From: a virus
Strand: one strand, 5' to 3'
IMG/VR virus record: IMGVR_UViG_3300023210_000011
Coordinates: 67,436-131,435 of that record
Length of the DNA stretch: 64,000 nt
How positions within the stretch are numbered: the stretch's first letter is position 1; each line of letters starts with the position of its first letter. The notes under the pieces are model-generated. The model was given only the letters and a program-made list of their open reading frames with translations. It made no database searches and had not been told where the DNA came from. Shown here piece after piece: positions 29,755 through 60,618 of the stretch. The translations under genes and the position numbers were made by a program.

Positions 29755-30544
29755 TCTGCAGCTCTTCCGGGATGAGCAAGCTCACCCCCTGGTCCTACTC
29801 CGTGCCTGCCTCCGCCTGTTTGGGGCAGAGGTGCTGGAGTGGGAGCCCACGGTCGTGAAGAGGTCGATCGAAGACGCCACTGAGGCCACCGTATCTCGCG
29901 TGAACTTCGTGAAGATCCTGGCGGCCCTGACCGTCGCGAACCGCGACAACTTCTGGCTGGAGTGGGAGACCTTCCACTTCTTGTCCCAGGCGTTGAACAA
30001 CAACCTCCCCTCGGCAGGTGCCATCCAAGATCAGAGCGTCGGACAGATGATGGTGGCGGTGGACATCGCTGCCAGCATCCGGAAAGAGCTGGGGACGCTC
30101 TCGGAGGTCCCGGAGTTCAGCGACGAGGTGCGGCGGTACATCGCGGCCCAGCTCTCGGAGGCGGGAATCTGGTTCGTCCCAGAGCCCCTCACCTTCGTCA
30201 ACCCCCTCATCTCTGGACTCACCCAGGTTTGCGGTGAGTGTGACAATGAGGAGGAGCCGCAGGTGGACGGCCTCTGCAGCTACTGCACGGATCGGTACGA
30301 CGCGGACTCTCTGCTCAAGCTCGAACCGGACGAAGAGCTCAGCAAGAAGTACGACGGATCCAAGGTGCGGGTCATCGAGAAGTTCAAGACGCTCCCCGTC
30401 CAGAAGCGGCTCATGGACTACCTGACAAAGCCTGCTACGGTACTCCGCGAGACCCAGGCGGATATCTGTACCGCCAAGATCGTGACCGGATTGGAGTACA
30501 TGATGCACCGCCGGGCGCAGCTGAGCCGACAGGAGGCCGTATGA
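29741..30544 (+). CDS. Hypothetical virion-assembly protein, about 267 aa
   Basis: Overlaps its neighbours; CGEC...CSYC zinc pattern. Confidence 0.65.
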   Translation: MAATDLQLFRDEQAHPLVLLRACLRLFGAEVLEWEPTVVKRSIEDATEATVSRVNFVKILAALTVANRDNFWLEWETFHFLSQALNNNLPSAGAIQDQSVGQMMVAVDIAASIRKELGTLSEVPEFSDEVRRYIAAQLSEAGIWFVPEPLTFVNPLISGLTQVCGECDNEEEPQVDGLCSYCTDRYDADSLLKLEPDEELSKKYDGSKVRVIEKFKTLPVQKRLMDYLTKPATVLRETQADICTAKIVTGLEYMMHRRAQLSRQEAV

Positions 30545-31566
30545 CCCCGGAATCCCTGGCCGCCTTCGTAGACGAGATGCAGAAGCTCTCAGAAATGCCC
30601 GCACCGGCTGCCAAGGAGGAAGATCGCGGTGGGGTCGTCAGTCGCGCACGTAGCTCTCTGAAGCGGCACGCAGGAGTCGGAACCCTCGCCATGGGAGGCC
30701 TGACCGCGGCGCTGGCTGCGAAGAACCCGCAGGCAGCCGGGAAGTTCTTTCGGCACGCCAAAGAGCTGGTGACGAAGCCGGGTAAGAGTCTCGCGCGCGG
30801 GTGGAAGTCTGGAAGGACAGACATCACCTCTGGAGCTGGGGCATCGGACGCTGCGTCGAAGCGGGTCGGCATGTACAAGGACACGTTCCGCAGTGCCGGA
30901 GATGGGCGACTCCTCCAGCATGACGTGCTCACTCAGAAGGACCCAGGGTTCTTGCGGCGGCAGAACATCCTCGGCGTCGGAGAGCGCAGCAAAGAGGGCC
31001 TAAAGCTGAACAAGGCGCTGGCACAGCGGGTCAAGGAGACTCAGGGCAGGTTGGACGCTGGGGAGCGGATTCCGGAGAGTCAGTTGCGCGCACTCTACGA
31101 CGAGATCGGCCAGGCTGGTAGCGCCCAGAAGCTCAAGCCGGCGGCGGGCCTGACGACGTACATGCCCGGAGAGAGGTCTGCTAACGTGGGCCTCGGGACC
31201 GTCGGAGGAGTGGCAGGAGGCCTCGAGTCGCACGATCCCGAGACGGGGCGTAAGCGTGGGGTAGGAGAGCGCCTGGCCCGTGGTGCTGCTGGGGCAGGCA
31301 CCGCCATTGGGCTGGGACACATGTTCATGGGTCGAGGCACTGGGATGGACGCCGGGAACTTCATCCCCAAGAGCCTCCGGGCTAAGCTGCCGAAGACGTT
31401 CCGCGGTAACCAGATCCCCCTCACAGGGGATAGGTCGATGCTCTCCCAGAAGGGGCTGCTGCCGCTGGCCGCTGGCGGCGTACTCGCAGCAGGAGAGGGC
31501 GTAGCCGCAGATGCTGCAGGTGCGGGCGGGCAGTTGGTAGATCGGGCCTTCGGGCAGGGGGAGTAG
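30541..31566 (+). CDS. Leader + basic glycine-zipper cargo protein, 341 aa
   Basis: N-terminal LAAFVDEMQKLS; several GxxxG-rich hydrophobic helices. Confidence 0.7.
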   Translation: MTPESLAAFVDEMQKLSEMPAPAAKEEDRGGVVSRARSSLKRHAGVGTLAMGGLTAALAAKNPQAAGKFFRHAKELVTKPGKSLARGWKSGRTDITSGAGASDAASKRVGMYKDTFRSAGDGRLLQHDVLTQKDPGFLRRQNILGVGERSKEGLKLNKALAQRVKETQGRLDAGERIPESQLRALYDEIGQAGSAQKLKPAAGLTTYMPGERSANVGLGTVGGVAGGLESHDPETGRKRGVGERLARGAAGAGTAIGLGHMFMGRGTGMDAGNFIPKSLRAKLPKTFRGNQIPLTGDRSMLSQKGLLPLAAGGVLAAGEGVAADAAGAGGQLVDRAFGQGE

Positions 31567-33630
31567 ATGTCGGTCTCAGGCGAGCTCAGTCGGTTCAATC
31601 CGCGTCGCGCCAGTGTGGACGGGAGCCGTGGATTCGGTATCCAATACCCGTCCCCCTTCTTCGACATCGCGCAGCAGTTCCTCCCGACGAACCAGCACCA
31701 GCTGCACAAGTGGTGTCGGTACTACTTCCTCACGAATCCGGTCATCAACGCCGCCTGCTCCAAGATGGCCGAGTACCCGGTCACCCCTCTGGTGTTCGAG
31801 ACAGAGGACCCGGAGCTCCAGAAGCTCGGACGCAAGGTCGAGGGGCAGCTCAAGCTGCGCTCGTTCCAGGTCGAGGTGGGCCTGGACTACTTCGTGTACG
31901 GCAACGCCTTCGTCTCGGTGTTCCTGCCGTTCGAGAAGTACCTCATCTGCTCGAGCTGCAAGGCCCGGTACCGGGCGAAGACGAACCGCTTCCGCTACAC
32001 CTGGCGCAACTCCCGTTTCTACCTCAAGAAGTGCAAGTGTGGGCACGTCGGCTACGCCAAGCAGCACGACGTCTACATGCGGAGCTTCCGGCAGATCAAA
32101 CTGGTCCGCTGGAACCCCGAGAACATCACGATCAAGCACAACGAGATCACAGGGGAGACGAAGTACTTCTTCAAGCTCCCCCGTGCGGTGCTCAATGACA
32201 TCAAGCTGGGGGACAAGGACACCATCGAGACGCTGCCCATCGAGTTCCTCGAGGCGGCGCGGCGTCGGAAGTCTCTGCTCTTCTCGAAGGACAACCTGTA
32301 CCACCTGAAGCGTCCGACCATCGCGCAGAAGGACCAGGGGTGGGGAACCCCCCTGATCTACCCGCTGCTGAAGGATGCGTACTACCTGCAGGTGATGAAG
32401 AAGGCGAACGAGGCAGTCCTCCAGGAGAGCATCGTCCCCCTCCGCATTCTCTTCCCGGGCCAGAGCACGGGAGGTAACGAGGGGCCGTACGGCGCGTACA
32501 ACCTGACGAACTGGAAGAAGCGTGTTGATGAAGAGATCAACATGTGGAAGCGGGACCACAACTACATCCCTGTCCTTCCGGTGAACGTCGGCTTCCAGCA
32601 GATCGGCGGCCAGGGGCGCTCCCTCCTGCTCTACCAGGAGATGCGACTCCTCGCGGAGCAGATGCTGGCCGGTGCCGGCATCCCCGTAGAGTTCATCTTC
32701 GGCGGCCTCCAGTGGAGTGGGTCGAGTACCTCTCTCCGTGCCCTGGAGAACATGTTCCTGGGCTTCAACATGCAGCGGCATGAGCTCGTGAATGAGTTCA
32801 TCCTCGGGAAGATCTTCTCCTTCATGGACTGGCCGAAGGTCCCTGCGCGGTTCGACAAGTTCCGCATGGCCGACGATCTCCAGAGGAGCATGTTCTACCT
32901 GCAGCTCAACCAGGCACAGAAGATCAGCAACCGCCGGCTCATGGAGGAGGTCGGAGAGAACTTCGACCTCGAGACCGAGCGCATGGAAGACGAGATCGCG
33001 ACGCAGCTCCAGGCCAACCGCAAGATGCAGGTGGCTTCTGCCGACATCCAGGGCGAAGCCCAGCTGCGTGGATCCCGCTACCAGACCAAGGCCCAGGAGC
33101 TCCAGATGCGCTCCCAGGCCAAGGTACAGATGGAGATGCAGCAGGAGCAGATGCAGGCTCAGGCGGCCATGCAGGGCGGAGCTCCGGGGCAGCCTCCCCC
33201 ACAGCAGCCCGCGCAGCCTCCACAGCAGCCTTCACAGCAGCCTCAGCAGGGCGGAGATCAGGCCCAGCAGACTGCAGGTCTCCCAGAAGGGGCCACGGCG
33301 TACGACGAGAACGCACAGAACCCCAACGCCACGGGCATGCCGGCAGCGATGGCGGGAATGCAGTCACAGGTACAGCCCGGTGGAGGAGGCGTAGACCTCC
33401 GGTACATCGCGCAGCGAGCCGCGGCATTCCTGCGCACCGTGAAGGCTGAGCAGGGTGAGGAGGCGATGTTCCAGTCTCTTGCGCAGATGCAGACCTCCAA
33501 CCCCGCGCTCTACCAGCTGGTAGTCCAGCTAATGAATGAGACGGGGTCGAAGCAGGATCCGACAAACGCGATGTCGAATCCTGCTCCGAATGGAACTCCG
33601 CAGGCCAGTGCGGGACGCCAGGTCGGCTAA
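31567..33630 (+). CDS. Portal protein, 687 aa
   Basis: YPSPFFD...WCRYYFLTNPVINAA.SKMAEYP, DYFVYGNAFV, YHLKRPT...WG.PLIYPLLKD: portal-like organisation next to head genes, with a Q/P-rich C-terminal tail. Confidence 0.75.
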   Translation: MSVSGELSRFNPRRASVDGSRGFGIQYPSPFFDIAQQFLPTNQHQLHKWCRYYFLTNPVINAACSKMAEYPVTPLVFETEDPELQKLGRKVEGQLKLRSFQVEVGLDYFVYGNAFVSVFLPFEKYLICSSCKARYRAKTNRFRYTWRNSRFYLKKCKCGHVGYAKQHDVYMRSFRQIKLVRWNPENITIKHNEITGETKYFFKLPRAVLNDIKLGDKDTIETLPIEFLEAARRRKSLLFSKDNLYHLKRPTIAQKDQGWGTPLIYPLLKDAYYLQVMKKANEAVLQESIVPLRILFPGQSTGGNEGPYGAYNLTNWKKRVDEEINMWKRDHNYIPVLPVNVGFQQIGGQGRSLLLYQEMRLLAEQMLAGAGIPVEFIFGGLQWSGSSTSLRALENMFLGFNMQRHELVNEFILGKIFSFMDWPKVPARFDKFRMADDLQRSMFYLQLNQAQKISNRRLMEEVGENFDLETERMEDEIATQLQANRKMQVASADIQGEAQLRGSRYQTKAQELQMRSQAKVQMEMQQEQMQAQAAMQGGAPGQPPPQQPAQPPQQPSQQPQQGGDQAQQTAGLPEGATAYDENAQNPNATGMPAAMAGMQSQVQPGGGGVDLRYIAQRAAAFLRTVKAEQGEEAMFQSLAQMQTSNPALYQLVVQLMNETGSKQDPTNAMSNPAPNGTPQASAGRQVG

Positions 33631-33890
33631 TCCCACTGCGGTGGGTTGATCGCCCACTTGCGAGGCTTTGAGATCTGGATTCCTTCCAGCAGAGCCCCCA
33701 AGATCTTGGGGGCATGTTCCACGAAGCACGCCTCATGGAACATGACTTCGTGATCTCCCGTAGTGAACGTCTCTACTTCTGCGGTCCACCGCACGGCCCG
33801 TCGGAAAATCCGGTGTCGGGAGAGACAGAGGGCGGCCTCCCGCCGCACAATGTGAGCTCCGCAGTACTCACAGTAGTAGCTGGGGGTCAC
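33627..33890 (-). CDS. Small zinc-binding hypothetical protein, about 87 aa
   Basis: YCEYCG...FHEAC; GTGA overlap with the upstream gene. Confidence 0.55.
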   Translation of the reverse strand: MTPSYYCEYCGAHIVRREAALCLSRHRIFRRAVRWTAEVETFTTGDHEVMFHEACFVEHAPKILGALLEGIQISKPRKWAINPPQWD

Positions 33891-34048
33891 GGCATCACCG
33901 CCAGCAGGAAACTCGAGTAGTCTCCGCAGCCAGCACATTCTCCTGCGCCCCAAAAGGGGAGAGCCGGTAGGGCCCCCGCGCAGGCAGAGCACAACCACAG
34001 GGCATCGGGTACTTCCTCCTTCAACTCTGGGCAGCCCTTGCAGTCCAT
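33887..34048 (-). CDS. Small Cys-rich protein, about 53 aa
   Basis: MDCKGC...CSAC...CAGCG; CATACT 29 nt upstream of ATG 34048. Confidence 0.5.
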   Translation of the reverse strand: MDCKGCPELKEEVPDALWLCSACAGALPALPFWGAGECAGCGDYSSFLLAVMP

Positions 34049-34138
34049 GTCCCCACAGCGTCCCTCTACGATCGGGCAGTATGCTGCGAGGATGTCCTCT
34101 TCTGCGGTTCGAGGGGCTATAGAAATCTCGGGAGGACG

Positions 34139-34181
34139 GAGAGAAAGCCCCTCGAGGCCGGCATCACGCCGACCTCGAAGG
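34139..34181 (-). terminator. Intrinsic terminator of a short leftward transcript
   Basis: Minus strand CCTTCGAGGTCGGC-GTGAT-GCCGGCCTCGAGGG (14 bp, two G-U pairs) followed by GCTTTCTCT. Confidence 0.65.
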
Positions 34182-34199
34182 ACACTCTCCCGGGGCCTC

Positions 34200-34307: not shown

Positions 34308-34308
34308 C

Positions 34309-34392: not shown

Positions 34393-34425
34393 GTGCTGCT
34401 CCAGCGTCGGCGCTACTTGCCGACT

Positions 34426-34433: not shown

Positions 34434-34460
34434 TATGGCCTCGATCTGTGGAGTATTTAG

Positions 34461-40787: not shown

Positions 40788-41242
40788 CCATGAACAAGAT
40801 CGCCGCCTACGAAGCCGCTCTCGCACGCCTCGACGCAGAGAAGACCGCCGAGGCGATCATCGACGCATACGGCACTTCTGAGGGCTACATGCCGGGCCCG
40901 TACCTTCTCGCCTTCGACCAGATGGAGAAGGAGGCGGGCATCAAGGCCCTGCAGGAGTTCGGGAAGGGGTTGTTCCGCTCTGGCATGAAGGGAGCGAAGA
41001 CTGTCGGAACTCGGGTGGGGGGCACCCGAGAGGGGGGTAAGTTCGTCCGTGGCGGCTGGAAGATGAACAAGGGCATGGGCGCAGGAGATCAGCTCAAGTG
41101 GCTCGGGAGCCGCGCCCAGATGCACGTTGGTCGCGCCCTCCAGACCGGCGGCGGCCAGGCAGCCCTCGGTGCCGCGGGCGCTGCTGGAGTGGGTGCCGCC
41201 GGCTACGGAGGCTACCGCGTCCTCGGCGGTGGCCAGAAGTAG
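40784..41242 (+). CDS. KIAAYE-leader + basic amphipathic cargo protein, 152 aa
   Basis: MNKIAAYEAAL..EKTA...MEKEAG then K/G-rich cargo ending in an Ala/Gly helix. Confidence 0.75.
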   Translation: MTMNKIAAYEAALARLDAEKTAEAIIDAYGTSEGYMPGPYLLAFDQMEKEAGIKALQEFGKGLFRSGMKGAKTVGTRVGGTREGGKFVRGGWKMNKGMGAGDQLKWLGSRAQMHVGRALQTGGGQAALGAAGAAGVGAAGYGGYRVLGGGQK

Positions 41243-42450: not shown

Positions 42451-43650
42451 ATGACTGCCCTCTTCCTTCCCGAGGTCGACCCGCATTCCTTCTTCGAGAA
42501 GGCGGCGTCCATCGCCAAGATGCCGGACGACGAGACGAAGTGGCCTGCGCATGTGCTGTCGAACCTGCACCAGCAGCTCCCGTTCCTCAGCCAGTTCGAA
42601 GTCAACATTGACATCCAGCGCATGGAGCCGGAGGCCGGATTCGCATTCGGGCACGCCATGCTGCTGCCGAAGAGTGATCCCGCTGCGGCGACCGAGTCGA
42701 AGAATCCTGAGAACATGCTCCGGATTCCGATCATCATCTCGGACCGACAGCTGCAGCCCTTCCACGTATTCGAGGTCGCGGGGAACGCGTTCCCCCTGAC
42801 CGCGGAGCGTGTGCAGTCTGCGCTCACCAGCCCGGCCATCTTCGACGGTCCGGCCAAGCGTCCGTCTGGGCAGAAGTCTCTGATCGACCAGCTGCACCCG
42901 CCCTACCAGCAGCGTCAGGGCTTTGGCCTCCACAAGTCTGCGGGGGCGCCGAACTACGAGAACATGAGTGCCGACCAGCTCCAGCAGATGGCGGAGCTCA
43001 AGCGGACGAAGAAGCTCGACAAATACCAGCGCGGGCTCTCCGGGAAGGAGAGGGTCGAAGGGGCCGTTCGTCAGTCCACCATCCCTATCGGGGTTGGTGC
43101 CGGTCTCGGGGCGCTCAGGGCGATGGGAGCATCGAAGGCCAAATGGGACAAGAAGGGCATCCAGCAGCGGCTTGGAGCCGGCCTCGGTGGCGCTCTTGTT
43201 GGTACTGGAACGGGTGCGGCCATCACCGCCGCCAATCAGGGAGTCCAGAACTGGCGGCGGAAGAAGCGAGATGCGGCGCGTAGGGAGATGGGCCTTCTCA
43301 AGAAGGAAGGTTCCGTCACCCTCAGTTTCAGCTCCTCGAACATGGTCCCGGCTTCTGCAGTAGTGGGGAGCCAGCGGCTTCCTCTGAAGAGCGGGGCCAC
43401 GGTGGCTTCCCTCGCCTTCTACCAGGTGCCCGGCACGAAGTTCGTGATGGCCGTACCTCGGAGCATGGCGAAGAAGCTCGAGAAGGTCTCGGACCAGCAG
43501 AAGCTCCGCAGCATGCTCAGCGGTGGGATGCGCGAGGAGATCCGGGCTGCACGCAGCGGACTCCCTTCCCCCGGCCTGTTCATGGTCTTCGAGAAGGCCA
43601 AGAAGGGCTACCGCTACCTCAAGCCCAGTCCCATCGCCGGCATGCGCTGA
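42451..43650 (+). CDS. Modular head protein: globular N-domain + KxA-bounded glycine-zipper cargo, 399 aa
   Basis: FEKAAS, HKSAG, KKEGS boundaries; GVGAGLGAL and GAGLGGALVGTGTGAA helices. Confidence 0.7.
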   Translation: MTALFLPEVDPHSFFEKAASIAKMPDDETKWPAHVLSNLHQQLPFLSQFEVNIDIQRMEPEAGFAFGHAMLLPKSDPAAATESKNPENMLRIPIIISDRQLQPFHVFEVAGNAFPLTAERVQSALTSPAIFDGPAKRPSGQKSLIDQLHPPYQQRQGFGLHKSAGAPNYENMSADQLQQMAELKRTKKLDKYQRGLSGKERVEGAVRQSTIPIGVGAGLGALRAMGASKAKWDKKGIQQRLGAGLGGALVGTGTGAAITAANQGVQNWRRKKRDAARREMGLLKKEGSVTLSFSSSNMVPASAVVGSQRLPLKSGATVASLAFYQVPGTKFVMAVPRSMAKKLEKVSDQQKLRSMLSGGMREEIRAARSGLPSPGLFMVFEKAKKGYRYLKPSPIAGMR

Positions 43651-45588: not shown

Positions 45589-46290
45589 GTGGCCCCGCAG
45601 CTCATCGAGATCGGAAACATGACGCCTGCCGAGGTCCGGCAGGCGTACGACTCCTTCCGGAAGATGGAGATGGAGAAGAAGCAGCAGCTCGCTGAAACTC
45701 CTCCGGGCACCCTGCGCCACCGGTGGCGCTCTCGGCAGTACAAGAACCACCGCAGGGACGCGGAGTCCTTCTTGGCGAAACAGGGAGCCGCCCCCATGGA
45801 CAAGCTCGCACGCATTTTCGGCGCCCAAGAGCCGGATGTATCAGAAGCTGCAATCCCGTACGGCGTTCGGAAGCGTCAGTACTCTCGGTACGCCAAGGCC
45901 AAGGCCAAGGAGAAGGCTACCCCCATGGGTAAGGCCTCCCTGGTGGGCGGCCTTGTTGGGGGCGGCATCGGGGCGCTCGGCGCGGCCCTGAGCGGACCGT
46001 CACGGCGTGCGGCACCCAACGCTGTGATCGGGGGAGTCCTCGGTGGCCTCGGTGGGGCCCTGGTTGGCGCCGGGCTGTCTGCCCAAGATGAGAGCCACAT
46101 CCGGGCGGCCAAGAGCATCGTCCGCAACAACAACTACGACCGGGCCACCCTGGGGGCCGTCCGCCGGCAGCTCGATACCAAGCAGCACCAGCGGGAGTTG
46201 AACGAGTTCTACAAGGAGCAGCGGGCGGAAGATCGCCACCATGAGCTCCGCAATCGCCTGGATCGCATCGATCGGCATAGCCGCTACTGA
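45589..46290 (+). CDS. Glycine-zipper cargo protein, 233 aa
   Basis: AKQGAAPMDKLA; GGLVGGGIGALGAA and GGVLGGLGGALVGAGL. Confidence 0.7.
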   Translation: MAPQLIEIGNMTPAEVRQAYDSFRKMEMEKKQQLAETPPGTLRHRWRSRQYKNHRRDAESFLAKQGAAPMDKLARIFGAQEPDVSEAAIPYGVRKRQYSRYAKAKAKEKATPMGKASLVGGLVGGGIGALGAALSGPSRRAAPNAVIGGVLGGLGGALVGAGLSAQDESHIRAAKSIVRNNNYDRATLGAVRRQLDTKQHQRELNEFYKEQRAEDRHHELRNRLDRIDRHSRY

Positions 46291-46298: not shown

Positions 46299-46742
46299 GT
46301 GGACAAACTCGCAGCATACGAATCTCTTTTGGAAGGCCACCCACTCTGGGAGGATTTCGAAAAGTCTGCAGCCTGGGCCCCAGTTGGGGCCCTAACCGGC
46401 GTGGTGGGCGGAGCTGCGCTTGGCTACGCCAAGAGCCGAGAGCTGCCCCGGAAGTCTCGTGTTCGCGGAACTATCGCAGGCGGGGCGCTCGGCGGTGCCG
46501 TAGGTATGACCGCGGGGGGAATGGCAGATGTGACCAGCTCTTTCCGCCGGGCCAATGCGGCGCTGGAACGCGCGCACGCAGGGGGGCTGTTGCAGGATGC
46601 CCTGGACAATCGAAATCACTTGGCTGCCCTGCGAGAGTTGGACCTCTCGAGTGCCCGCGTCGATAGAATTCGAGGCAAAATGAATTCCTTGGAGAAGGAG
46701 ATCAAATCCCTGGATGACCTCGATCGGTTTATGACGGAGTAG
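46299..46742 (+). CDS. KLAAYE-leader + glycine-zipper cargo protein, 147 aa
   Basis: MDKLAAYESLLEGHPLWEDFEKSAA; GALTGVVGGAALG and AGGALGGAVGMTAGG. Confidence 0.75.
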   Translation: MDKLAAYESLLEGHPLWEDFEKSAAWAPVGALTGVVGGAALGYAKSRELPRKSRVRGTIAGGALGGAVGMTAGGMADVTSSFRRANAALERAHAGGLLQDALDNRNHLAALRELDLSSARVDRIRGKMNSLEKEIKSLDDLDRFMTE

Positions 46743-49999: not shown

Positions 50000-50485
50000 G
50001 TGAGCATCATCGACCGCATCGCCGACCACGGGCGCTATCTCGCCCCCACAGACCGGCCGCCCACCGGGGACCCTTCCAATCCCGCGTCTCCTGAGTCCAT
50101 CGCCTACCGTGAGTGGGAGCGCGCCGCGCCGCGCCGGCTCAACTGCATGGGCGAGGACCTGCGTGGACTGGACTTCAATGAGGCCAGCCTCCGCATGGCG
50201 GGACTGAAGGGTGCCGACCTGCGGAACTGTGACCTGCGTAAGTGCGACCTGCACGGTGCAGATCTACGGGACTGCGCGTTGGAGGGCGCGAACCTCGCTG
50301 GGGCCCATGTCGACGCAAGCACTCGTATTGCCCACATCGACCTGGGCACGGGCCTCGCCAACCGCACGAGCCTCGTGCTGCTGTTGGAGGCCGTAGGTGG
50401 CGACCCCGAGGAGGAGCAGACCCGCGCCCTCGTGGAGGCGCTCAAGGGGCGGACGGGCAGACCCGGCGGCAGGGTCACGAGGTAG
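50000..50485 (+). CDS. Pentapeptide repeat protein, 161 aa
   Basis: EDLRG LDFNE ASLRM AGLKG ADLRN CDLRK CDLHG ADLRD CALEG ANLAG. Confidence 0.85.
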   Translation: MSIIDRIADHGRYLAPTDRPPTGDPSNPASPESIAYREWERAAPRRLNCMGEDLRGLDFNEASLRMAGLKGADLRNCDLRKCDLHGADLRDCALEGANLAGAHVDASTRIAHIDLGTGLANRTSLVLLLEAVGGDPEEEQTRALVEALKGRTGRPGGRVTR

Positions 50486-50895: not shown

Positions 50896-51225
50896 ATGGA
50901 CAAGATTGCCGCGTACGAAAAGATTCTCGCCGAGCATCCGCTGTGGGAGAAGACTGCCGTGACGGAGATGGGTGCGCTGATCCTTGCGGGGCTGGGAGCT
51001 GCTACTGCGCTGGGGGCAGCAGCCGGAGGAGCTGCAGGCGCCATGACTACCCACGAGGGAAATAGACTTCGGGGGGCCGGAGTCGGTGCGATGGCTGGGG
51101 GCATTGGCGGACTTCTGATGGCCTCGCCGGTGGGTTCCCCCGTTGCTGGCGGCGTGGCGGGCGGCCTTGCTGCCCACTACCTGGCGGGACCCGGCGCCAC
51201 GAAGGAAGCGAAGCTGCTGCGGTAG
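50896..51225 (+). CDS. KIAAYE-leader + hydrophobic glycine-zipper peptide, 109 aa
   Basis: MDKIAAYEKILAEHPLWEKTA then ALILAGLGAATALGAAAGGAAG and GVGAMAGGIGGLL. Confidence 0.8.
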   Translation: MDKIAAYEKILAEHPLWEKTAVTEMGALILAGLGAATALGAAAGGAAGAMTTHEGNRLRGAGVGAMAGGIGGLLMASPVGSPVAGGVAGGLAAHYLAGPGATKEAKLLR

Positions 51226-52169: not shown

Positions 52170-53885
52170 ATGAGTTTTTCCAAAGACCATTCGGGGCCAT
52201 GGGAGTACCAGGCGCCGCGTAGGGAGAGGCAGAAGTCGGCAGATCTACGCCGTGCGCCGATCCCCGTGCGTCCCTCCGAGTTCGTCGAGACCACGGTTCT
52301 CATGCCGGACGCGCACACCCGGTCCCTCACGAACTTCTCGTTCGCAGAGCGGGGGTACCTTCGGGAGATCTACGACATCCAGGCACCCCGCACGTTGCTG
52401 ATGTGCGGCAGACAGGTCGAGAAGAGCACGACGCTCGGCAACAAGATGCTGGCCTACTCGTGTCTCATCCCCCACTTCAAGGTTCTCTACGTCTCGCCCT
52501 CGAGCACGCAGACGAAGGAGTTCTCGAAGACGCGGCTGAAGGAGTCGATCGATACGTGTCCAGATCTACGGACCTGGTTCCCGTCGCACCTCACGGACAA
52601 CGTCTTCGAGAAGAAGGCGATCAACCGTAGCAAGCTCACCCTGCGGTACGCCTTCCTCAACGCTGACCGGTGCCGTGGGCTGTCCGCCGATCTCATCGCG
52701 ATGGACGAGTTTCAGGATCTCCTGCTCGACAACATCCCGGTCATCGAAGAGGCCGCATCCCACAGCCCCTTCAAGTGGTTCATCTACAGCGGCACCCCCA
52801 AGTCGCTGGACAACCCCATCCAGGTCTACTGGGACTCGTATTCGACGAAGAACGAGTGGGTGGTGCCTTGTGATAGGCATGGCCTCCCCAACAACCCCGG
52901 GTCGTGGCACTGGAACATCCTGGGGGAGAAGAACATCGGCCTTCGAGGCCTCTCCTGTGATCGGTGTGGGGAGCCCATCCACGCGAACCACCCGATGGCT
53001 CAGTGGATCCGGACCGGCAACCCGAACCCGAAGTTCGACACCTTCGAGGGCTTCCGCATCCCTCAGTTGATGGTGCCCTGGATCTCTTGGAGCAACATTC
53101 TAACGAAGTACAACGGGTACTCGAGAGGCAAGTTCTACAATGAGGTCCTTGGCCAGAGCTTTGACTCCGGCCAGCGCCCCCTGACGCAGAGCGACGTCCA
53201 GGCGAACTGCGACCCCGAATTCAGCATGGCCGCGGACAAGCTGAAGGAGGCGATGGGCAAGGTCCGGGGCAAGAAGGTCTACGCTGGGATCGACTGGGGG
53301 CAGGACAGCAACAACTCGTACACGATCTTGATGATCGGTGCGTACATCGACGGGTTCTTCCGCATCATCTTCTCGCACAGATTCAGCGGTGCGGAGGCGG
53401 AGCCGAAGGAGCAGATCACCAAGATCAAGAAGCTCCTCAAGGCGTTCAATATCGACCGAGTGGGGGTCGATTACGGTGGAGGCTACTGGCCGAATGATGA
53501 GCTCTTGCGGACGTACGGATCCCAGCGCGTCGTCAGGTACCAGTACTCCACTCCGAAGACGATCATGAAGTACGACTCCTCGAAGGGGCGCTTCCTGATT
53601 CACCGCTCTGAGGTGATGAGCGCGGTCTTCAACGCCATCAAGCGGCGGTCGGTCTTCCGATTCCCGAAATGGTCGGAGTTCCGGAGCCCCTTCGCGTCGG
53701 ACATGCTGGCGATCTTCTCTGAGTACAACGAGCGCACGCGGATGACGGAGTACCGGAAGTCTCCGAACACCACGGATGACTCCTTCCACGCCCTGCTGCT
53801 CTGTTTCATCGTCTCCATGATCGACAACCCGCGTCCGGACATCCTGGTACCGAGTGCTAAGATCGATCGGGAACTGGATGACTGA
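52170..53885 (+). CDS. terL: Terminase large subunit, 571 aa
   Basis: Walker A-like CGRQVEKST, Walker B IAMDEFQD, SGTPKS, nuclease YAGIDWG, VGVDYGG, DDSFHA. Confidence 0.88.
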   Translation: MSFSKDHSGPWEYQAPRRERQKSADLRRAPIPVRPSEFVETTVLMPDAHTRSLTNFSFAERGYLREIYDIQAPRTLLMCGRQVEKSTTLGNKMLAYSCLIPHFKVLYVSPSSTQTKEFSKTRLKESIDTCPDLRTWFPSHLTDNVFEKKAINRSKLTLRYAFLNADRCRGLSADLIAMDEFQDLLLDNIPVIEEAASHSPFKWFIYSGTPKSLDNPIQVYWDSYSTKNEWVVPCDRHGLPNNPGSWHWNILGEKNIGLRGLSCDRCGEPIHANHPMAQWIRTGNPNPKFDTFEGFRIPQLMVPWISWSNILTKYNGYSRGKFYNEVLGQSFDSGQRPLTQSDVQANCDPEFSMAADKLKEAMGKVRGKKVYAGIDWGQDSNNSYTILMIGAYIDGFFRIIFSHRFSGAEAEPKEQITKIKKLLKAFNIDRVGVDYGGGYWPNDELLRTYGSQRVVRYQYSTPKTIMKYDSSKGRFLIHRSEVMSAVFNAIKRRSVFRFPKWSEFRSPFASDMLAIFSEYNERTRMTEYRKSPNTTDDSFHALLLCFIVSMIDNPRPDILVPSAKIDRELDD

Positions 53886-54344: not shown

Positions 54345-54346
54345 TT

Positions 54347-54770: not shown

Positions 54771-55451
54771 TTATTCCCCGAATTTTACTCTGTGAAAGAG
54801 GTCCTCCTTCACAGTCGCGCCTTCTCGAAACTCCGGAGGCAGCGCCCCCTTGAGTTCGCGGTAGACGAAGCAGGAAATTCGCAGCCGGCGGCGCGCGTCT
54901 GCCAGCAGTTTGTGGACTTCCTGCGCAGCGAGGGAGTTCTTGTAGTCCGCCCTCGCCACGACCTCGGAGATCATCCGGCTGCTCAGGCGCAGGAGCTCCA
55001 CCCACGCGGTCGGATGCCCCGCCCTCTCGAAGACCGCGAGGTCTTCCTCATCTGCGCGACCGAAGATGTCGGCCCAGCTCTCCAGGTCTCTCAGGGTGTA
55101 CGACCCTTGGGGACGCGCAGCCTGATCTCGGAGCAGTCCCATCACGGCATTGGCGTAGTCCGGGGTCATCCCCAGCTTGGCGTTCCGTAGATCCAAGATC
55201 TGCTGGACCACAGCCATCTGGGATTCCAATCGCCGCACTTTCGCGCGCAGCGTTCGGATCTCCGCCAACTTCGGCCGCTCCAGCATCCCCTCTGTCTTGA
55301 GCTCATGGACCTCTTCGGGGTCCAGGTGCTGGCGCCGCCCAGACCGCTGGCTCGACAGCTGGCCCGAGTTGATGTAGTTGCGTATAGTACGCTCGGAGCG
55401 ACCCAGAACGCGCGCAGCTTCTGAGATCGTCATTGTATACTGAGTGCCCAT
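54771..55451 (-). CDS. Excisionase/MerR-type HTH DNA-binding protein, about 226 aa
   Basis: MTISEAARVLGRSERTIRNYINSGQLSSQR followed by a coiled coil; start at 55451 or 55433 (the track's 5' extension is antisense shadow). Confidence 0.75.
   Translation of the reverse strand: MGTQYTMTISEAARVLGRSERTIRNYINSGQLSSQRSGRRQHLDPEEVHELKTEGMLERPKLAEIRTLRAKVRRLESQMAVVQQILDLRNAKLGMTPDYANAVMGLLRDQAARPQGSYTLRDLESWADIFGRADEEDLAVFERAGHPTAWVELLRLSSRMISEVVARADYKNSLAAQEVHKLLADARRRLRISCFVYRELKGALPPEFREGATVKEDLFHRVKFGE
55436..55441 (+). promoter_or_regulatory. Candidate -10-only late promoter (TATACT)
   Basis: 28 nt upstream of ATG 55470, the first gene of the capsid operon. Confidence 0.55.
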
Positions 55452-55469
55452 TCTCTCCCCGGATGATGA

Positions 55470-56414
55470 ATGTTCAGCGGGCCCACAATCACGCGCAGCT
55501 ACCTTCAGGGCCTTGCTCGCAACGCGACTACCGATTTCCTCACGCACGGAACTCCGCTCACCGAAGCCGTGGTGAAGCAGGCGAGTGCGGTAGACGCGAC
55601 CCTCACCGCGGAACACGTCCGGCGTGTGTGTGAGATGACGTACCACGACGCGTACGAGCGGATGCACAAGCAGGCGGGCAGCGCAGATCGCTACATCGTC
55701 TTCGACCCGCCCGACCCCTGTGTCGCGGCAGGGATGCTCAACGCTGCGAAGGTGGCTTCCGCGCAGGCGCGAACTACTTCCACCTCGGGATCTCTTATGA
55801 CAGAGAAAATCGCCTCTGCCCAGCCTCGCGTCAAGTTCCAGCGGGCCAACGCTTTCGACGAACTGATGAAGACCGCCAGCGGCGAGGATGAGGCGTTCGA
55901 GAACAAGAAGCTCGCCCGCCAGGTGCAGGATCTCGATCGGAATCTCCGAGAGGCTTCCAGTGCCCTCGAGGGGCAGATCGAGGCGTGCAAGACGGCGTCC
56001 GCCATGGCGTGGGACGCGCTGGTGAAGACGGCGTACAACACCTACAAAGACGGGCACTCCCTGGAGGAGGTTCTGCACGCAGGCTTCTCCGGCATGGACT
56101 CCTCCGTCAACCATGCTGAGGCCACCAAGGTCGCTTCCCAGCTCGCGGAGTTCTTCGCGGACAAGGTCGAAAAGACCGCAGGCCTCAAGGTCCACCGGAC
56201 GCAGCGCCTGGGTGAGATCGACCCCGACCATCCGTTGCCATCCCGCTTCAACAAGATGGCTGCCCTGGCGACGCAGCGCGCTCACATGGAGATCGCGTTG
56301 AGTGACCTCCAGCGGGATCGCAAGTACCTCAACGAGGAGATCTCCGAGACCCTCTTCGGGGACAAGACCGCAAGTATCCGCCAGATCTCCGCTCTCCAGA
56401 CTCGAGGTTCCTGA
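55470..56414 (+). CDS. Head assembly (scaffold/core-like) protein with about 10 KxA motifs, 314 aa
   Basis: VKQAS, AKVAS, EKIAS, MKTAS, CKTAS, VKTAY, TKVAS, EKTAG, NKMAA, DKTAS. Confidence 0.7.
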   Translation: MFSGPTITRSYLQGLARNATTDFLTHGTPLTEAVVKQASAVDATLTAEHVRRVCEMTYHDAYERMHKQAGSADRYIVFDPPDPCVAAGMLNAAKVASAQARTTSTSGSLMTEKIASAQPRVKFQRANAFDELMKTASGEDEAFENKKLARQVQDLDRNLREASSALEGQIEACKTASAMAWDALVKTAYNTYKDGHSLEEVLHAGFSGMDSSVNHAEATKVASQLAEFFADKVEKTAGLKVHRTQRLGEIDPDHPLPSRFNKMAALATQRAHMEIALSDLQRDRKYLNEEISETLFGDKTASIRQISALQTRGS

Positions 56415-56968
56415 TGTCTGTCTCTGTGCCCGCCGATGCCTACGCCGCCTACGCTCGCGGTGAGATCTCCCAGGACGAGCTGGCCGAGCTCGAGAAGTTC
56501 GCAGACGCGCTCAACAAGGAGGCGGGGGCCCCCATGGGCGGACTGTCTACCGCCCAGCTCGGGGGTCTGATGCTGGCAGCTCCCACGGCAGTGTGGGCGG
56601 GATCCAAGATCCCCCAGGCCCTCGACAACACGCTCAGTGCGATGACCTTCAACCGGGACTACAACCGGATGCTGAAGGTGAACCCGCAGCTGGGTGCCCC
56701 GGACGACCCGAACCTTCGGATGGCCTTCAAGACCCTCCGGAGTACCAATCCGAGCTACTCGAAGGATCCGCTCATCGCCGGGACCATCCTCGACATGGTG
56801 ATGACCAACCGCATGGACCCGGATGACCCCTCGAGTGCTCCGCGCTTCGATCCGGCTCTCCTGCAGCAGCTCCAGAACCGAGGGTCGGACCCTGCGGCCA
56901 CTGAGGCAGGCAAGGCGGTGAGTCGTGTTCCGCAGCAGATGATGGCCGGATTTGGCGGCGGGGACTGA
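56414..56968 (+). CDS. Head-region protein, 184 aa
   Basis: EKFADALNKEAG followed by a hydrophobic helix; TGATG overlaps. Confidence 0.7.
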   Translation: MSVSVPADAYAAYARGEISQDELAELEKFADALNKEAGAPMGGLSTAQLGGLMLAAPTAVWAGSKIPQALDNTLSAMTFNRDYNRMLKVNPQLGAPDDPNLRMAFKTLRSTNPSYSKDPLIAGTILDMVMTNRMDPDDPSSAPRFDPALLQQLQNRGSDPAATEAGKAVSRVPQQMMAGFGGGD

Positions 56969-58905
56969 TGGACAAGGAAGCCCTCTTCAGAGGCACTTCT
57001 CGTGATGGATCTCCCCTGATCCATCGAGTAGAGCCCGGCTCCGCCCACGGGGCCTCCGAAACTGGAGGTCTCTGCAAGACTGCGTCTGGAGAGCACCTTC
57101 CTGAAGTCCTGGAACTTCTGGAGTCCATCGAGGCCCAGCCAGGCCGCCTGTACCTGGTGAACTCCGCCCTGGGGGCCGGTGAGTACGTGGGGTTCAACCT
57201 CCGCGGCGATTGGTTCACCGAAGCTGGACTGCGGAGAGCGCCTCCCGGCTTCGAGGACATTCCCGTGTGGGACATCGATGCGCGGCGTCGTGCGGCGAAC
57301 CAGACTGAGGCCCTCCCTCGCTGGGGGTCCCTGACCTGGGGATACCCCACGTTCTACAACGCGCACCGCTTCCGGCACCACGTCAACAAGGACCCCAATA
57401 AGGCGTACGGCTTCATCCTCGGCGCCTTCTGGGACGACCGCATGAAGCGGGTCATCCTGGTCTCGGAGCTCGTGAGGGACATGTGCGCCAAAATGGGCGC
57501 TCTCGATCTCTACGATCGGATCCGGAATGGGGAGTTTCCTGACACATCCATGGGCTCCAAGGTGCCCTACGATCGCTGCTCGATCTGCGACAACCACGCA
57601 CGCACCCCACTCGAGTACTGCAAGCACGTCCAGCGAGGCGCCCCAGCTCCGTATGGGATGAAGACCCTTCTGCCAGACGGCCGCATCTGCGGGGTCTACA
57701 ACGACTACCCTCGCTTTTTCGATGACTCCTACGTGTTCGTCGGAGCGGAGCGGTCTGCGAAGGTCATGTCGAATGTGACGGACCAGGTGCTCGGCTCAAA
57801 CGGGTACTCCCAGACGATCTACCCGTTCATCCCGCCCCGCATGCGGAAGACCGCAGGAGCAGAGGAGCCGGCAGCGGCACCTATGCCCGATTTCGTCATT
57901 GAAGAGAAGCTGACGCGTGCCCTGGGTTCGATCCCGGCATCGACCCCGATGGAGCGGGAGGCTCTGCGCTTCTTCATGCAGGAACGCCTGGCTGAAGAGC
58001 GCCTGTTGATCGGAACCATGTCTGCGACTGAGTTCGAGATGTGGAAGGAGATCGCGGTCAACACGTTCTCGCGCCAGTACGGACTCCCGCCGCACCATCT
58101 TTCGCACCTGAAGGACGTCTTCAACCAGAGGGTCAACCTCTCCGGGGTAACGAAGGTCGCGGAGATGCCCAAGTGGGCGGAGATGCTCAAGCGGATCCCC
58201 GCCCCGACTGCTGCGCAGATGAGCCTGCTCCGCAAAGAAGAGCAGAGTCTCCCGGAGCTCCCACGAGAGGTTCTGGACCAGATGGCGGAGTCTCCGGGCC
58301 CCAACCTACGCGCCGCGGCGCGATTGGGGATCGTGGTACGTCCGCACGAATTCCAGAGGATCCTTCTCTCACGAAAGAACCCCGCCTTGGCGGATGAGCT
58401 CTACCAGAACCGGGAAGTGTTCCGTCCCTGTGCGCTGAAGTCTCAGGCGTCTCCCTTCGACGCCGCGTCTTTCGTGCCTCAAGAGGCGATGTCTCGGATC
58501 ATCTCTCTTCTGACGGATTTTCTTCCGAAACGGTCGTTCGCCCCATCGGCGATTCGCATTCGGCTTGTCCGAGGTCCCACAGAAGACAGCTTCTCCCCCC
58601 TGCGTGAGCGGGCGGGGTTGGATCACATCTCTCGGCTGTACAATGCGTACCGGCTGGGAATCATCACGAAAAAGCCTGACCTCCAGGCGATTCGTGTCCC
58701 TGGTGGGTATTCGAGAGATCTTCGCAGTGATGTGAAGACGGCGGAAGATGCCGTCGAACTCTCAAATATTCTGCTACATGTTGCCTACTGGCCGGGCCTT
58801 GCATTAGGCTTGAGTCAGCCGGCCGAGGGACGTCCTCCCGAAGACGCCTCTCAATCACACGAACCTGATCCTGAGAGTACCCATGTCCCTCCTTACGGAG
58901 CTTGA
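56968..58905 (+). CDS. Putative prohead maturation protease with a long C-terminal extension, 645 aa
   Basis: N.RGDWF, FRHH.NKD, G.ILGA.WD, SMGSKVPYDRCSICDN...YCKH...N..P.FFDDSYV..GAE..A fits phage prohead protease architecture; upstream of scaffold and capsid genes. Confidence 0.6.
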   Translation: MDKEALFRGTSRDGSPLIHRVEPGSAHGASETGGLCKTASGEHLPEVLELLESIEAQPGRLYLVNSALGAGEYVGFNLRGDWFTEAGLRRAPPGFEDIPVWDIDARRRAANQTEALPRWGSLTWGYPTFYNAHRFRHHVNKDPNKAYGFILGAFWDDRMKRVILVSELVRDMCAKMGALDLYDRIRNGEFPDTSMGSKVPYDRCSICDNHARTPLEYCKHVQRGAPAPYGMKTLLPDGRICGVYNDYPRFFDDSYVFVGAERSAKVMSNVTDQVLGSNGYSQTIYPFIPPRMRKTAGAEEPAAAPMPDFVIEEKLTRALGSIPASTPMEREALRFFMQERLAEERLLIGTMSATEFEMWKEIAVNTFSRQYGLPPHHLSHLKDVFNQRVNLSGVTKVAEMPKWAEMLKRIPAPTAAQMSLLRKEEQSLPELPREVLDQMAESPGPNLRAAARLGIVVRPHEFQRILLSRKNPALADELYQNREVFRPCALKSQASPFDAASFVPQEAMSRIISLLTDFLPKRSFAPSAIRIRLVRGPTEDSFSPLRERAGLDHISRLYNAYRLGIITKKPDLQAIRVPGGYSRDLRSDVKTAEDAVELSNILLHVAYWPGLALGLSQPAEGRPPEDASQSHEPDPESTHVPPYGA

Positions 58906-59986
58906 GGCACGGGGCGTCACGGCCGAAGACCTGGAGAAGGCGGCGTCTGTCCGCTTCTTCGAGAAGGCCGCCGCCGCTGAAGGCGTGAACCTCGACGAGC
59001 TTGGCGAGAGCCAGGTCGAAGAGCTGTACGCTTCCTTCATCCACAACCACTCGTCCGTCGAGGACGATCACTCCAAAGAGGCATCCGCCATGAATGACGA
59101 GATCGTCGACCTGTTCGAGAAGACCGCTGCAGCCGAGGGCATCGACCTCGACGTGATGGAAGACGCTGAGCTTGCTGAGCTCTACAACCACTACGTCGAG
59201 AACGTCCTCCCCGAGCAGATCGGCGAGTACGAGAAGGAGGCCTCCCACGAGGACGAGGCGTACGAGGACGAGGCGTACGAGAAGCTGGCGGAGGCTGAGA
59301 TCCTCGGTCGTCACATGGCGCGTGCCTACATGGACGAGATGGACAAGGAAGCCGGAGAGAAGAAGAAGAAGTACCGTACGGGCCTCGGCCCGCGCGTTCG
59401 GGCAATGAATCGCGGCCAGGACCCCGCCAGCGGGGGACGCCGGCAGATTGGCTCCAGCATGACGTCCAACCTCGGTGGCAAGCTCAAGGAGTTGGTGACG
59501 GGGCACCAGGCAGCAGCGTCACGGGCCGGTGAGAAGATCAAGGGAGATGCCTCCCTCAATGTCACTGCGCGTGAGCGCAAGCAGCTCATGGACGAAGCCA
59601 AGAACCTGGGCGACGAGGGCAGCCTCCCGCGCCGAGGTATCGGAGCGAGCCGAAACCGGGGCGGCGGCACTCGTTCGGCAGCTCGGTACTCCGACGGTGC
59701 GCGTAGCACTGCTGCGAAGCTCCGTCGGCAGAAGGGCGTCTTCCGGGCCGAGCGGTTCAAGGGCTACGGGAAGCGCGGCCTGGTCGCGGGCGGAGCGATC
59801 GCCGCTGCCGCAGGCGGTAAGGCGCTGATGGACAAGAAGTCGTCCGCCGACGATCTCTTCGACATGGCGTACGAGCGGGCGGATGAGTTCGCCAAGCTGG
59901 GCAGCATCGACGACTACGACGGGTCGTTCATCGACGACTGCGCGCTCGACATCCTCGACGAGCACGGCTTCGAGCTGGTGGACTGA
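58883..59986 (+). CDS. Acidic scaffold-like protein with an internal basic KxA-bounded cargo, 367 aa
   Basis: Duplicated FEKxAAAEG.xLD.....LxELY module; acidic-basic-acidic layout bounded by DKEAG and KKSSA. Confidence 0.65.
   Translation: MSLLTELEARGVTAEDLEKAASVRFFEKAAAAEGVNLDELGESQVEELYASFIHNHSSVEDDHSKEASAMNDEIVDLFEKTAAAEGIDLDVMEDAELAELYNHYVENVLPEQIGEYEKEASHEDEAYEDEAYEKLAEAEILGRHMARAYMDEMDKEAGEKKKKYRTGLGPRVRAMNRGQDPASGGRRQIGSSMTSNLGGKLKELVTGHQAAASRAGEKIKGDASLNVTARERKQLMDEAKNLGDEGSLPRRGIGASRNRGGGTRSAARYSDGARSTAAKLRRQKGVFRAERFKGYGKRGLVAGGAIAAAAGGKALMDKKSSADDLFDMAYERADEFAKLGSIDDYDGSFIDDCALDILDEHGFELVD
59249..59278. repeat. 15-bp tandem repeat (EDEAY x2)
   Basis: gaggacgaggcgtac twice in tandem. 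Confidence 0.9.
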
Positions 59987-60618
59987 TGCCCCTCCCAAGG
60001 ACCCTCATCGGTGCAGGAATCGGGTCAGTTGCTGGAGCAGCTGGCGGCGCCCTCACTGGTGACAAAAACCAGTCCGTAGCCAATCGAGTCGGTCGTGGGA
60101 TCCTTGGGGGGATGGCAGGAGCAGGCATGGGTACCGGAGTCCACACCGGACTCCGGTACCGCGGCCTCACCAAGAATCTCGGGTTCCAAAAGGGCCTCGG
60201 AACCCTGGAGGATGCTGCCCTCGGTACGAAGAGTCGCAAGTCCCTGGGGGACGCAGTTGAGGGGATAAAGAACAACATCGCCAAGAACGATGCAGCCGCC
60301 AAGGCCGCCAAGGTCCAGCAGGTTGCTGCTGACGATGCTGCCTTCAAGTTCACTGGATCTCCTGCGGACATGAAGAAGCAGTACCGCAAGCTCTCCCGGG
60401 AGCACCACCCCGATCACGCCATCAGGGAGGGGCTCTCGGAGTCCGCGGCCAACAAGCGGTTCGCCGAGCTGAAGGAGGCGTATGATCGTGCGGTCGCAGG
60501 GGGAGTCAAGGAAGCGTCGTTCATCAAGACCGCTGCGTTCTTCCACGAGCTCGCCAGCCAGCAGATCACTTCGGATGACTACTACTTCTGGTACGATCAG
60601 TTGAGGTCTCTTTCGTGA
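59986..60618 (+). CDS. Glycine-zipper protein fused to a J-domain (HPD), 210 aa
   Basis: IGAGIGSVAGAAGGAL / GILGGMAGAGMG; MKKQYRKLSREHHPDH...NKRFAELKEAYD; C-terminal VKEASFIKTAAF. Confidence 0.8.
   Translation: MPLPRTLIGAGIGSVAGAAGGALTGDKNQSVANRVGRGILGGMAGAGMGTGVHTGLRYRGLTKNLGFQKGLGTLEDAALGTKSRKSLGDAVEGIKNNIAKNDAAAKAAKVQQVAADDAAFKFTGSPADMKKQYRKLSREHHPDHAIREGLSESAANKRFAELKEAYDRAVAGGVKEASFIKTAAFFHELASQQITSDDYYFWYDQLRSLS

Follow-up and report, generated by a model that had tools for sequence, protein, structure and literature searches.

Three genes of an uncultured large phage that encode otherwise unrelated proteins begin with the same tag of about 20 residues, and this tag is a real, N-terminal and modular element under protein-level selection, with the motif K-x-A at its end. 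The genes lie in a stretch of 64,000 nucleotides (the window; positions 67,436 to 131,435 of IMG/VR record IMGVR_UViG_3300023210_000011), the last 64 kb of a viral contig of 131,435 bp with an estimated completeness of 70% and a guanine plus cytosine (G+C) content of ~63%. Like all genes below, they are named by their start positions in the window: 40790, 46299 and 50896. Because a tag of 20 residues is shared by unrelated small basic proteins (the cargoes) and finishes in K-x-A, it is probably a signal for loading into the capsid followed by trimming. By analogy with bacteriophage T4, we regard the pattern MDKIAAYE..LL..HPLW..K-x-A, on balance, as a portable N-terminal propeptide that would target its cargo to the capsid and then be removed.

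The pattern K[ILVM]AA[YFW]E has exactly three matches among the 2,646 six-frame fragments of the whole genome, all of them at residues 2–8 of plus-strand open reading frames (ORFs), namely 40790, 46299 and 50896. A hidden Markov model (HMM) built from the three tags recognizes its own members with E values of 2e-11 to 4e-16, while every other fragment of the genome has an E value of at least 5, and pairwise BLASTP comparison of the three proteins finds similarity limited to the first 11–21 residues. An initial annotation, made from the DNA letters alone, had noted that three dispersed genes start alike and had proposed an HMM of the leader as a check; the likeness is borne out by all three approaches, and conservation beyond chance holds in this genome and in its relatives. 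The same annotation had read the ORF 40784 from its second Met, correctly so, since the orthologues begin MDKIAAY and the start is thus 40790. Chance and recent paralogy were considered as origins of the tags and rejected (three of three copies at gene starts, similarity over only ~20 amino acids (aa), unrelated cargoes). In a set of 25 tag copies taken from this phage and its relatives, every synonymous codon is used for the invariant Lys3, Ala5, Ala6 and Tyr7, and the conserved Pro and Leu of HPLW likewise show full synonymous variety; the constraint therefore acts on the peptide and not on the RNA, and conservation of the tagged 5′ ends at the RNA level was rejected. In the window the tags are neutral to acidic (net charge 0 to −5). 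The cargoes are basic, with net charges of +8 for 40790 (+13 if counted after a second K-x-A, EKEA, at residues 46–49), +4 for 46299 and +2 for 50896, and a Gly plus Ala fraction of 0.29–0.50, in agreement with their earlier description as basic and rich in Gly and Ala. Gene 40790 lies directly 3′ of the RNA polymerase gene in all relatives. A faint likeness to the tag start MDKIAAY is also seen at the N-terminus of the protease protein described below (56968–56990, plus strand; MDKEALF, family consensus MEKYSLF).

Outside this genome, a degenerate DNA pattern for M-[DN]-K-x-A-A-Y-E retrieved 16 stretches from IMG/VR, mostly on relatives, in which the C-terminal parts are 68–336 aa long and mutually different. 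One of these matches, L014, is likely due to chance: its ORF is 41 aa long, and the 50-kb contig that bears it lacks the protease. The ORF of L019 (41 aa) is near-identical to it. A profile search of five related contigs found three to four tagged genes on each of the four that have any, often side by side and with different cargoes. A profile of 25 tag sequences was further compared with 1.84 billion metagenome cluster representatives, and 163 proteins matched at E <= 1e-3; the tag census and the cargo statistics rest on the 150 listed of these 163 matches. About 145 of the 150 are true matches and four are low-complexity false ones. The tag stands at residue 1 in nearly all, and the few matches with offset tags look like mis-called starts or fusions. 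The consensus reads MDKIAAYExLLxxHPLWxKxA. K-x-A follows within 20 aa after HPLW in 138 of the 145 proteins and takes the form W-x-K-x-A in 90 of these; the Lys is most commonly preceded by Glu, Thr or Asn and the Ala followed by Gly, Glu, Ser or Ala. Some metagenomic proteins carry two tandem tags, or a tag behind an N-terminal domain, and K-x-A-S precedes the inner tag. Two IMG/VR contigs, G007 and G008 (those of matches L017 and L027), are complete phages with terminal repeats, 166 and 174 kb long and with 36–38% G+C. Their protease is only ~40% identical, yet each still has one gene starting MDKIAAYE..KEAS or MNKVAAYE, so that the tag spans a wide range of G+C content.

The motif that ends the tag is concentrated in the head/virion block, the part of the window from 28.7 kb to its end, where nearly all genes are on the plus strand. 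K-x-A-[SAG] has 53 occurrences in the 10,529 residues of this block and 25 in the 29,576 residues outside it (5.0 versus 0.85 per 1000 aa, a six-fold difference). At the 53 sites, a hydrophobic residue stands two positions before the Lys in 34 and Glu directly before it in 15; on the other side, Ser follows the Ala in 28 and a further Ala comes next in 22. The context Phi-E-K-x-A-S-A (Phi, hydrophobic) was seen in the head block only. The observed numbers exceed those in shuffled sequences in genes 28678 (6 versus 0.4), 44068 (7 versus 0.8), 55470 (10 versus 0.7), 58883 (6 versus 1.1) and 60932 (5 versus 1.2), and the excess in 55470 makes its product likely to be a core or scaffold protein that is cut into pieces. 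K-x-A is found within the first 50 aa of 17 of the 30 head-block genes, compared with five of 65 minus-strand genes (Fisher p = 5e-7). An apparent depletion of the motif within the RNA polymerase (one site versus 4.0 expected in the window) was dropped as a candidate signal, as the relatives have 1–3 versus ~3.4.

Several borders between genes and modules coincide with the motif. The neighbouring genes 29738 and 30541 are fused in six relatives, and the fused orthologues have [ST]-K-T-A-G exactly at the point where, in the window and in the contigs L003, L004 and L010, one gene stops and the next begins; the second gene has a leader of its own only where the pair is split. The ~120-aa module inserted in 42451, a gene with a conserved N-terminal FFEK(A/Q/M)AS, is flanked by the K-x-A-like sites HKSAG and KKEGS. 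In gene 45589 the remains of an internal tag are visible as MDKLAR at residues 70–75, where relatives have DKLAAYQ..HPLWTKEA↓RVFG (↓, presumed cut); a deletion of 16 residues, from the first through the last K-x-A of the tag, removed it. The first ~70 residues of this protein (45589–45795, plus strand) match phrog_1875, an 82-position family of unknown function (E 2e-5), and a phrog_1875-like domain also precedes an intact internal leader in the metagenomic protein P0268. Relatives of 58883 have duplicated Gly-zipper modules between K-x-A sites in place of its C-terminal half, and the orthologues of 58883, 60932 and 61666 in general consist of a conserved core to which basic zipper modules are added that vary, are duplicated in some cases and have K-x-A between them. 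Gene 59986 is absent from four close relatives, in which the orthologues of 58883 and 60615 adjoin. Together, the fission and fusion points, indel boundaries and inner tags suggest that K-x-A marks the borders of modules, and the 42451 indel and the modules of the 58883 orthologues support the earlier proposal that cargo is embedded between K-x-A sites.

A second type of leader had been described at 30541, 60615 and the end of 59986. It stands as a looser class, conserved in the orthologues of 30541 and 60615. Where 30541 has an orthologue encoded as a gene of its own, the product begins ..F-x-x-E-[LM]-x-K-x-[AS]; in the orthologues of 60615, a family unrelated to that of 30541, the start is ..FF-x-DE-[LM]-x-K-[IL]-[AS]. 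The FFEK(A/Q/M)AS of 42451 belongs to the same class. The type 2 leader is thus an extended form of the K-x-A site on other N-termini, and the type 1 tag ends alike (W-E-K-T-A).

A candidate for the enzyme that would act on these sites is encoded by gene 56968. Its product starts with 39 aa ending K-T-A↓S, which are followed by a predicted protease domain (residues 40–295; 57085–57852), a linker with K293-x-A295, a helical domain (residues 310–605) with K402-x-A404 and a further K-T-A near the end. The N-terminal 280 residues match Arash gp222, Vibrio phage proteins and gp19 of phage G, the gene of which sits between the portal and capsid genes of phage G. A weak match to the PHROG head maturation protease family was also obtained (E 1e-4), and more than 140 metagenome relatives were found, on contigs of up to ~199 kb. 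Four K-x-A sites are conserved across 30 homologues: K-T-A-S at residues 37–40, K293-x-A295, K402-x-A404 and one close to the C-terminus. All 30 have His138 and Ser194, and at least 90% have His220. With spacings of 56 and 26 residues, these three form a candidate triad spaced as in assemblin His-Ser-His. Several homologues of ~1,010–1,046 aa (P0079, P0088, P0095, P0097, P0102, P0106 and others) contain Hint_2, Intein_splicing and LAGLIDADG domains; such inteins fit an essential enzyme.

In a structural model of the full 645-aa protein (predicted local distance difference test, pLDDT, 69.5) the first three K-x-A sites lie in or beside low-confidence linkers; Foldseek gave only non-significant rows for this model, and the VIA re-alignment was filled by the helical domain. 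The model of the domain alone (pLDDT 76) was used in an exhaustive structural search of 48,161 chains and in Foldseek. The best match in the exhaustive search was T4 gp21 (Z 8.4, root-mean-square deviation 2.9, 132 residues aligned), with the proteases of varicella-zoster virus, human cytomegalovirus (HCMV) and Kaposi's sarcoma-associated herpesvirus at ranks 2–4 and unrelated folds from Z 4.8 down. The top ~45 Foldseek rows were almost all from the gp21 and herpesvirus protease families (best E 7e-3). The model of the domain thus matches the gp21/assemblin fold, and the gene of this predicted prohead protease lies in the head module.

The major capsid protein has the motif close to its N-terminus: residues 1–25 end T-K-T-A↓AAS, and the site is identical in four relatives. 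The only cultured relative, a distant one, is Arash, a Salmonella phage and a myovirus (PMC10585845), whose gp226 is 26% identical to the capsid protein and has V-K-E-A↓G at the same position. Arash gp222, gp223 and gp225 are enriched in K-x-A, but the head proteins of this phage show no enrichment of x-x-E-[SAG]. Arash gp206 and gp216 together correspond to the single-chain RNA polymerase of the window. They are the first and fifth most abundant proteins of Arash virions, and the helicase gp217 is also among the top ones (PMC10585845); both the RNA polymerase and the helicase are orthologues of K-x-A-bearing proteins. The Arash proteome lists 116 proteins, many with '100% coverage', and gives no termini (PMC10585845). 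The coverage of the capsid protein (86.6%) and of the protease homologue (84.9%) is compatible with trimming and not diagnostic of it.

In the mechanism that we propose, the amphipathic, mildly acidic helix of the tag would bind the assembling head core and draw the attached protein into the prohead. The protease domain of 56968 (residues 40–295) would then cut after the Ala of K-x-A, probably as K-x-A↓S/A/G, and the freed small basic protein may stay in the head with the DNA and would likely reach the host with it. By the same rule, the capsid protein would be trimmed, the protease freed from its scaffold-like C-terminal domain, core proteins (55470 and the acidic half of 58883) chopped and polyproteins split into modules.

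Several observations weigh against this proposal. The type 1 tag was not found in Arash, and the proteome of that phage does not cleanly part packaged from contaminating proteins. K-x-A also opens the tag itself (D-K-I-A-A), and this is as compatible with a binding motif as with a cut site. The assignment of K-x-A to the 56968 protease is drawn from the placement of the motif and from the herpesvirus Ala↓Ser analogy; the fold matches of the protease are only moderate (Z 8.4, Foldseek E 7e-3), and phmmer and profile searches of PDB chains gave no relevant match for it. K-x-A is also not significantly depleted inside the RNA polymerases of the relatives.

The closest functional parallel is found in T4, where targeting propeptides of 10–19 residues precede small, basic and poorly conserved internal proteins (PMC9026906). 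This capsid-targeting sequence (CTS) is present on IPI, IPII, IPIII and Alt and is removed by the prohead protease gp21 (PMC9026906). Like the CTS, the tag is a short N-terminal sequence, here a putative propeptide, common to otherwise unrelated proteins, it ends in the motif found at the other (here presumed) maturation sites of the head, its cargoes are small, basic and poorly conserved and are encoded among head genes, and the accompanying protease has a model that matches the gp21 fold. The tag differs in being twice as long (~20 aa) and unrelated in sequence to MKTYQEFIAE, in a presumed cut after the Ala of K-x-A rather than after the Glu of L/I-x-E, in a protease fused to a helical scaffold-like domain and in far more kinds of cargo (101 groups among 144 representatives). 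The tag would work like the T4 CTS, and judged by its sequence it does not belong to the T4 CTS family proper.

Herpesvirus proteases cut between Ala and Ser, the consensus of their R- and M-sites. The presumed scissile bond of 56968 is the same, and the rule is partly backed by an HCMV substrate containing ..Asn-Ala-Ser-Ser.. (bioRxiv 10.1101/2025.10.17.683123). The layout also recalls pUL26, which comprises assemblin, R-site, scaffold and M-site (PMC4498786): the model gives the N-terminal protease domain an assemblin fold, the order is again protease, linker site, helical domain and a site near the C-terminus, and the candidate His-Ser-His residues have assemblin-like spacing. In contrast to pUL26, the protein belongs to a tailed phage, the strongest determinant is the Lys at P3, the N-terminus has an additional presumed propeptide of 39 aa, and the motif recurs on dozens of other proteins as leader or linker. 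In the phiKZ-like phage SPN3US, gp245 acts on the motif A-x-E (PMC10052503). As proposed here, one prohead protease serves many internal head proteins, propeptides may have several cut sites and the head also contains a virion RNA polymerase. The cut motif differs, however, and most SPN3US propeptides are 111–254 aa long with no single shared portable tag, and ~80% of SPN3US head proteins are uncut (PMC10052503).

Removal of the tags left 144 cargo representatives, which BLAST similarity divides into 101 components; the family of gene 40790 is the largest of these. Their median length is 100 aa and their median net charge is +8, with a positive charge in 137 of the 144. At least three GxxxG motifs occur in 64 cargoes, a 19-residue window with a Kyte-Doolittle value of at least 1.6 in only eight, and neither feature in 67. 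Pfam and PHROG searches with the three leader genes and most of their neighbours returned either nothing or sub-threshold glycine-zipper matches, the latter (PF13488, PF05433, PF13436 and PF13441) at 16.8–21.7 bits versus cut-offs of 24–29, with the GxxxG pattern present; the 46299 cargo is among those with such matches. Ten long cargoes likewise gave no Pfam family beyond sub-threshold glycine-zipper and coiled-coil matches. Among the cargoes that recur is a glycine-zipper hairpin, 'GGALGG..EKRKKRA..GGALGG', made of two helices and a basic loop; it is type 1-tagged in some phages and part of polyprotein chains in others. It shares two GxxxG-rich helices and a short loop with the glycine-zipper domains of bacterial outer-membrane lipoproteins (PF13488, PF05433, PF13441), but lies below the Pfam cut-offs, has no signal peptide or lipobox, and differs in its strongly basic loop and phage-head-interior context. 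Structural look-alikes of 46299 are YMGG/Omp-type zipper proteins, which are a lead only. The cargo set differs between related phages (fast turnover), as with T4-type internal proteins.

Against these data, the earlier view of the leader as a device that routes cargo into the prohead held in part. It is supported indirectly by the portable module on unrelated cargo, by the K-x-A end that is enriched in head proteins and flanks the predicted protease domain, by the place of the genes in the head module and by the virion abundance of the Arash orthologues of other K-x-A-bearing proteins; the sequences past K-x-A are indeed unrelated. The cargoes are generally basic, as claimed, but less than half are rich in GxxxG, and glycine-zipper, membrane-active cargo is not supported as a general rule. 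Overall, the tagged proteins appear closer to the small basic internal proteins of T4 than to pore formers; a membrane role is possible for the zipper subset, including the three window genes.

The rival explanations differ mainly in what the tag and its cargo would do. According to one, the cargoes are amphipathic glycine-zipper peptides whose main task, once ejected, is to enter the host membrane and to build or assist a conduit through which, for instance, the RNA polymerase and the DNA could pass. The window cargoes do have GxxxG arrays and hydrophobic Gly/Ala stretches, with Kyte-Doolittle values of up to 1.8 (45589 and 50896), and the sub-threshold Pfam matches, the zipper look-alikes and the recurrence of the same hairpin with leaders and inside the polyproteins of relatives are in line with this idea. 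As a general account we nevertheless consider it rather unlikely: strongly hydrophobic windows are rare and almost half of the cargoes show neither feature, nearly all are strongly basic, as expected of DNA-associated internal proteins, and the long ones (220–340 aa) look globular and belong to no family. Moreover, the related Arash belongs to the myoviruses (PMC10585845), phages that do not rely on an internal ejectosome, and a literature search yielded no glycine-zipper ejection protein. A hydrophobic subset has also to be weighed as holin-like lysis or membrane proteins with the tag as a cytoplasmic regulatory N-terminus, a thought prompted by 50896, which is small and has two or three Gly/Ala-rich hydrophobic stretches and a charged C-terminus. 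That most tagged cargoes are not hydrophobic, that tagged genes are interleaved with head genes and that the same modules occur within head-module polyproteins make this explanation extremely improbable.

Two further alternatives keep the cargo aside and reinterpret the tag. The tag, and K-x-A generally, might be a docking motif for a component of the head (scaffold, portal, capsid interior or the helical domain of the protease) that is retained uncut. This would suit a tag that both starts and ends with K-x-A, and also the acidic half of 58883, which is an array of K-x-A, since short linear motifs repeated in this way are often binding sites and not cleavage sites. Yet K-x-A stands at gene fission and fusion points and indel boundaries, flanks the protease domain in disordered linkers and precedes the conserved body of the capsid protein in this phage and in Arash, places that hold processing sites in T4, phiKZ-like phages and herpesviruses (PMC9026906, PMC10052503, PMC4498786); we therefore judge retained docking to be quite improbable. 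Alternatively, the tag could be a recognition leader for a modifying or exporting enzyme, in the style of bacteriocins or ribosomally synthesized and post-translationally modified peptides and unrelated to the capsid. A conserved leader before a short variable cargo has that general form, but tagged cargoes reach 340 aa, no double-glycine site is present, the tagged genes lie inside the head module, and the end motif of the tag is common to the capsid protein, the protease and scaffold-like proteins. The ~70%-complete contig contained no match to radical S-adenosylmethionine enzymes in a search in which the controls matched and which did not extend to other maturase families. We give this alternative hardly any credence.

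Capsid targeting followed by trimming, the reading that we favour, can be extended to a wider scenario, in which a widespread uncultured clade of 130–190-kb phages would use a 20-residue address tag and a herpesvirus-like K-x-A↓S rule to stock the capsid with more than 100 kinds of small basic proteins, among them zipper hairpins that insert in the host envelope after ejection and help the 2,108-residue RNA polymerase and the DNA to cross. As a whole this scenario is doubtful and unlikely to hold in full. If the tag is a loading signal, the injected proteins of a large uncultured clade that packages its RNA polymerase could be listed by a simple rule at the sequence level, and among them would be candidate anti-defence proteins comparable to T4's IPI. 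The tag would also be a second, independent example of T4-style capsid targeting, with a cutting rule nearer to that of herpesviruses, would bear on the extent of head maturation common to tailed phages and herpesviruses, and could be attached, as a portable element, to foreign proteins to have them packaged. For the K-x-A part, a test is already feasible in the cultured Salmonella phage Arash.

The features discussed are collected in Table 1.

Table 1. Tags, cargoes and other features of the head/virion block, with positions counted from the first nucleotide of the window
Feature	Position	Strand	Gene or remark
Gene pair 29738-30544 and 30541-31566	29738-31566	+	Single ~630-aa ORF in six relatives
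Type 2 leader, ..AAFVDEMQKLS	30541-30594	+	Gene 30541-31566
Portal	31567-33630		30% identity to Salmonella phage Arash portal
Single-chain beta-beta′ RNA polymerase, 2,108 aa	34461-40787	+	Pfam Rpb2 and Rpb1 domains in one ORF
Type 1 leader, 20 aa, MNKIAAYE...EKTA, variant without HPLW	40790-40849	+	Gene 40790-41242
Cargo of 40790: small conserved YGT(S/C)EG segment, then Gly-rich basic tail	40850-41242	+	
Inserted basic Gly-rich module, ~120 aa	42928-43305	+	Gene 42451-43650; missing in two orthologues
Gene with decayed internal leader, then Gly-zipper cargo	45589-46290	+	
Type 1 leader, 24 aa, GTG start, ...HPLWEDFEKSA	46299-46370	+	Gene 46299-46742
Cargo of 46299: glycine-zipper hairpin (8 GxxxG) and C-terminal coiled-coil-like part, net charge +4	46371-46742	+	
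Type 1 leader, 21 aa, ...HPLWEKTA	50896-50958	+	Gene 50896-51225
Cargo of 50896: 88 aa, 50% Gly+Ala, hydrophobic G/A-rich stretches, Kyte-Doolittle up to 1.77	50959-51225	+	
Large terminase	52170-53885		
Head-module protein	55470-56414	+	10 K-x-A-(S/A/G) sites versus 0.7 expected
Predicted protease-scaffold protein	56968-58905	+	
Acidic N-terminal half with repeats each ending Phi-E-K-x-A (7 sites); basic variable C-terminal half	58883-59986	+	
Gly-zipper N-terminus, J domain, C-terminal KEAS/IKTAAFFHEL	59986-60618	+	
Gene with type 2 leader, ..FFMDELL..LLKEA↓A	60615-60935	+	
Major capsid protein	62966-64000	+	Cut by contig end

Portals 73–81% identical to that of the window are encoded on ten IMG/VR contigs. 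The J domain of 59986 scores 32 bits with DnaJ (cut-off 27.8) and has the HPD motif. Near its N-terminus, the RNA polymerase has a conserved T-K-E-A-I at residues 17–21. Just 5′ of the leader gene 50896, within the virion block, lies a gene for a pentapeptide-repeat protein (50000–50485, plus strand; Pfam E 1e-12). A minus-strand ORF at 54771–55400, between the terminase and the head genes, has a coding-type G+C content at third codon positions, and its product begins with a helix-turn-helix-like segment. The longer minus-strand ORF at 54771–56285 overlaps gene 55470 and is probably not real beyond ~55400.

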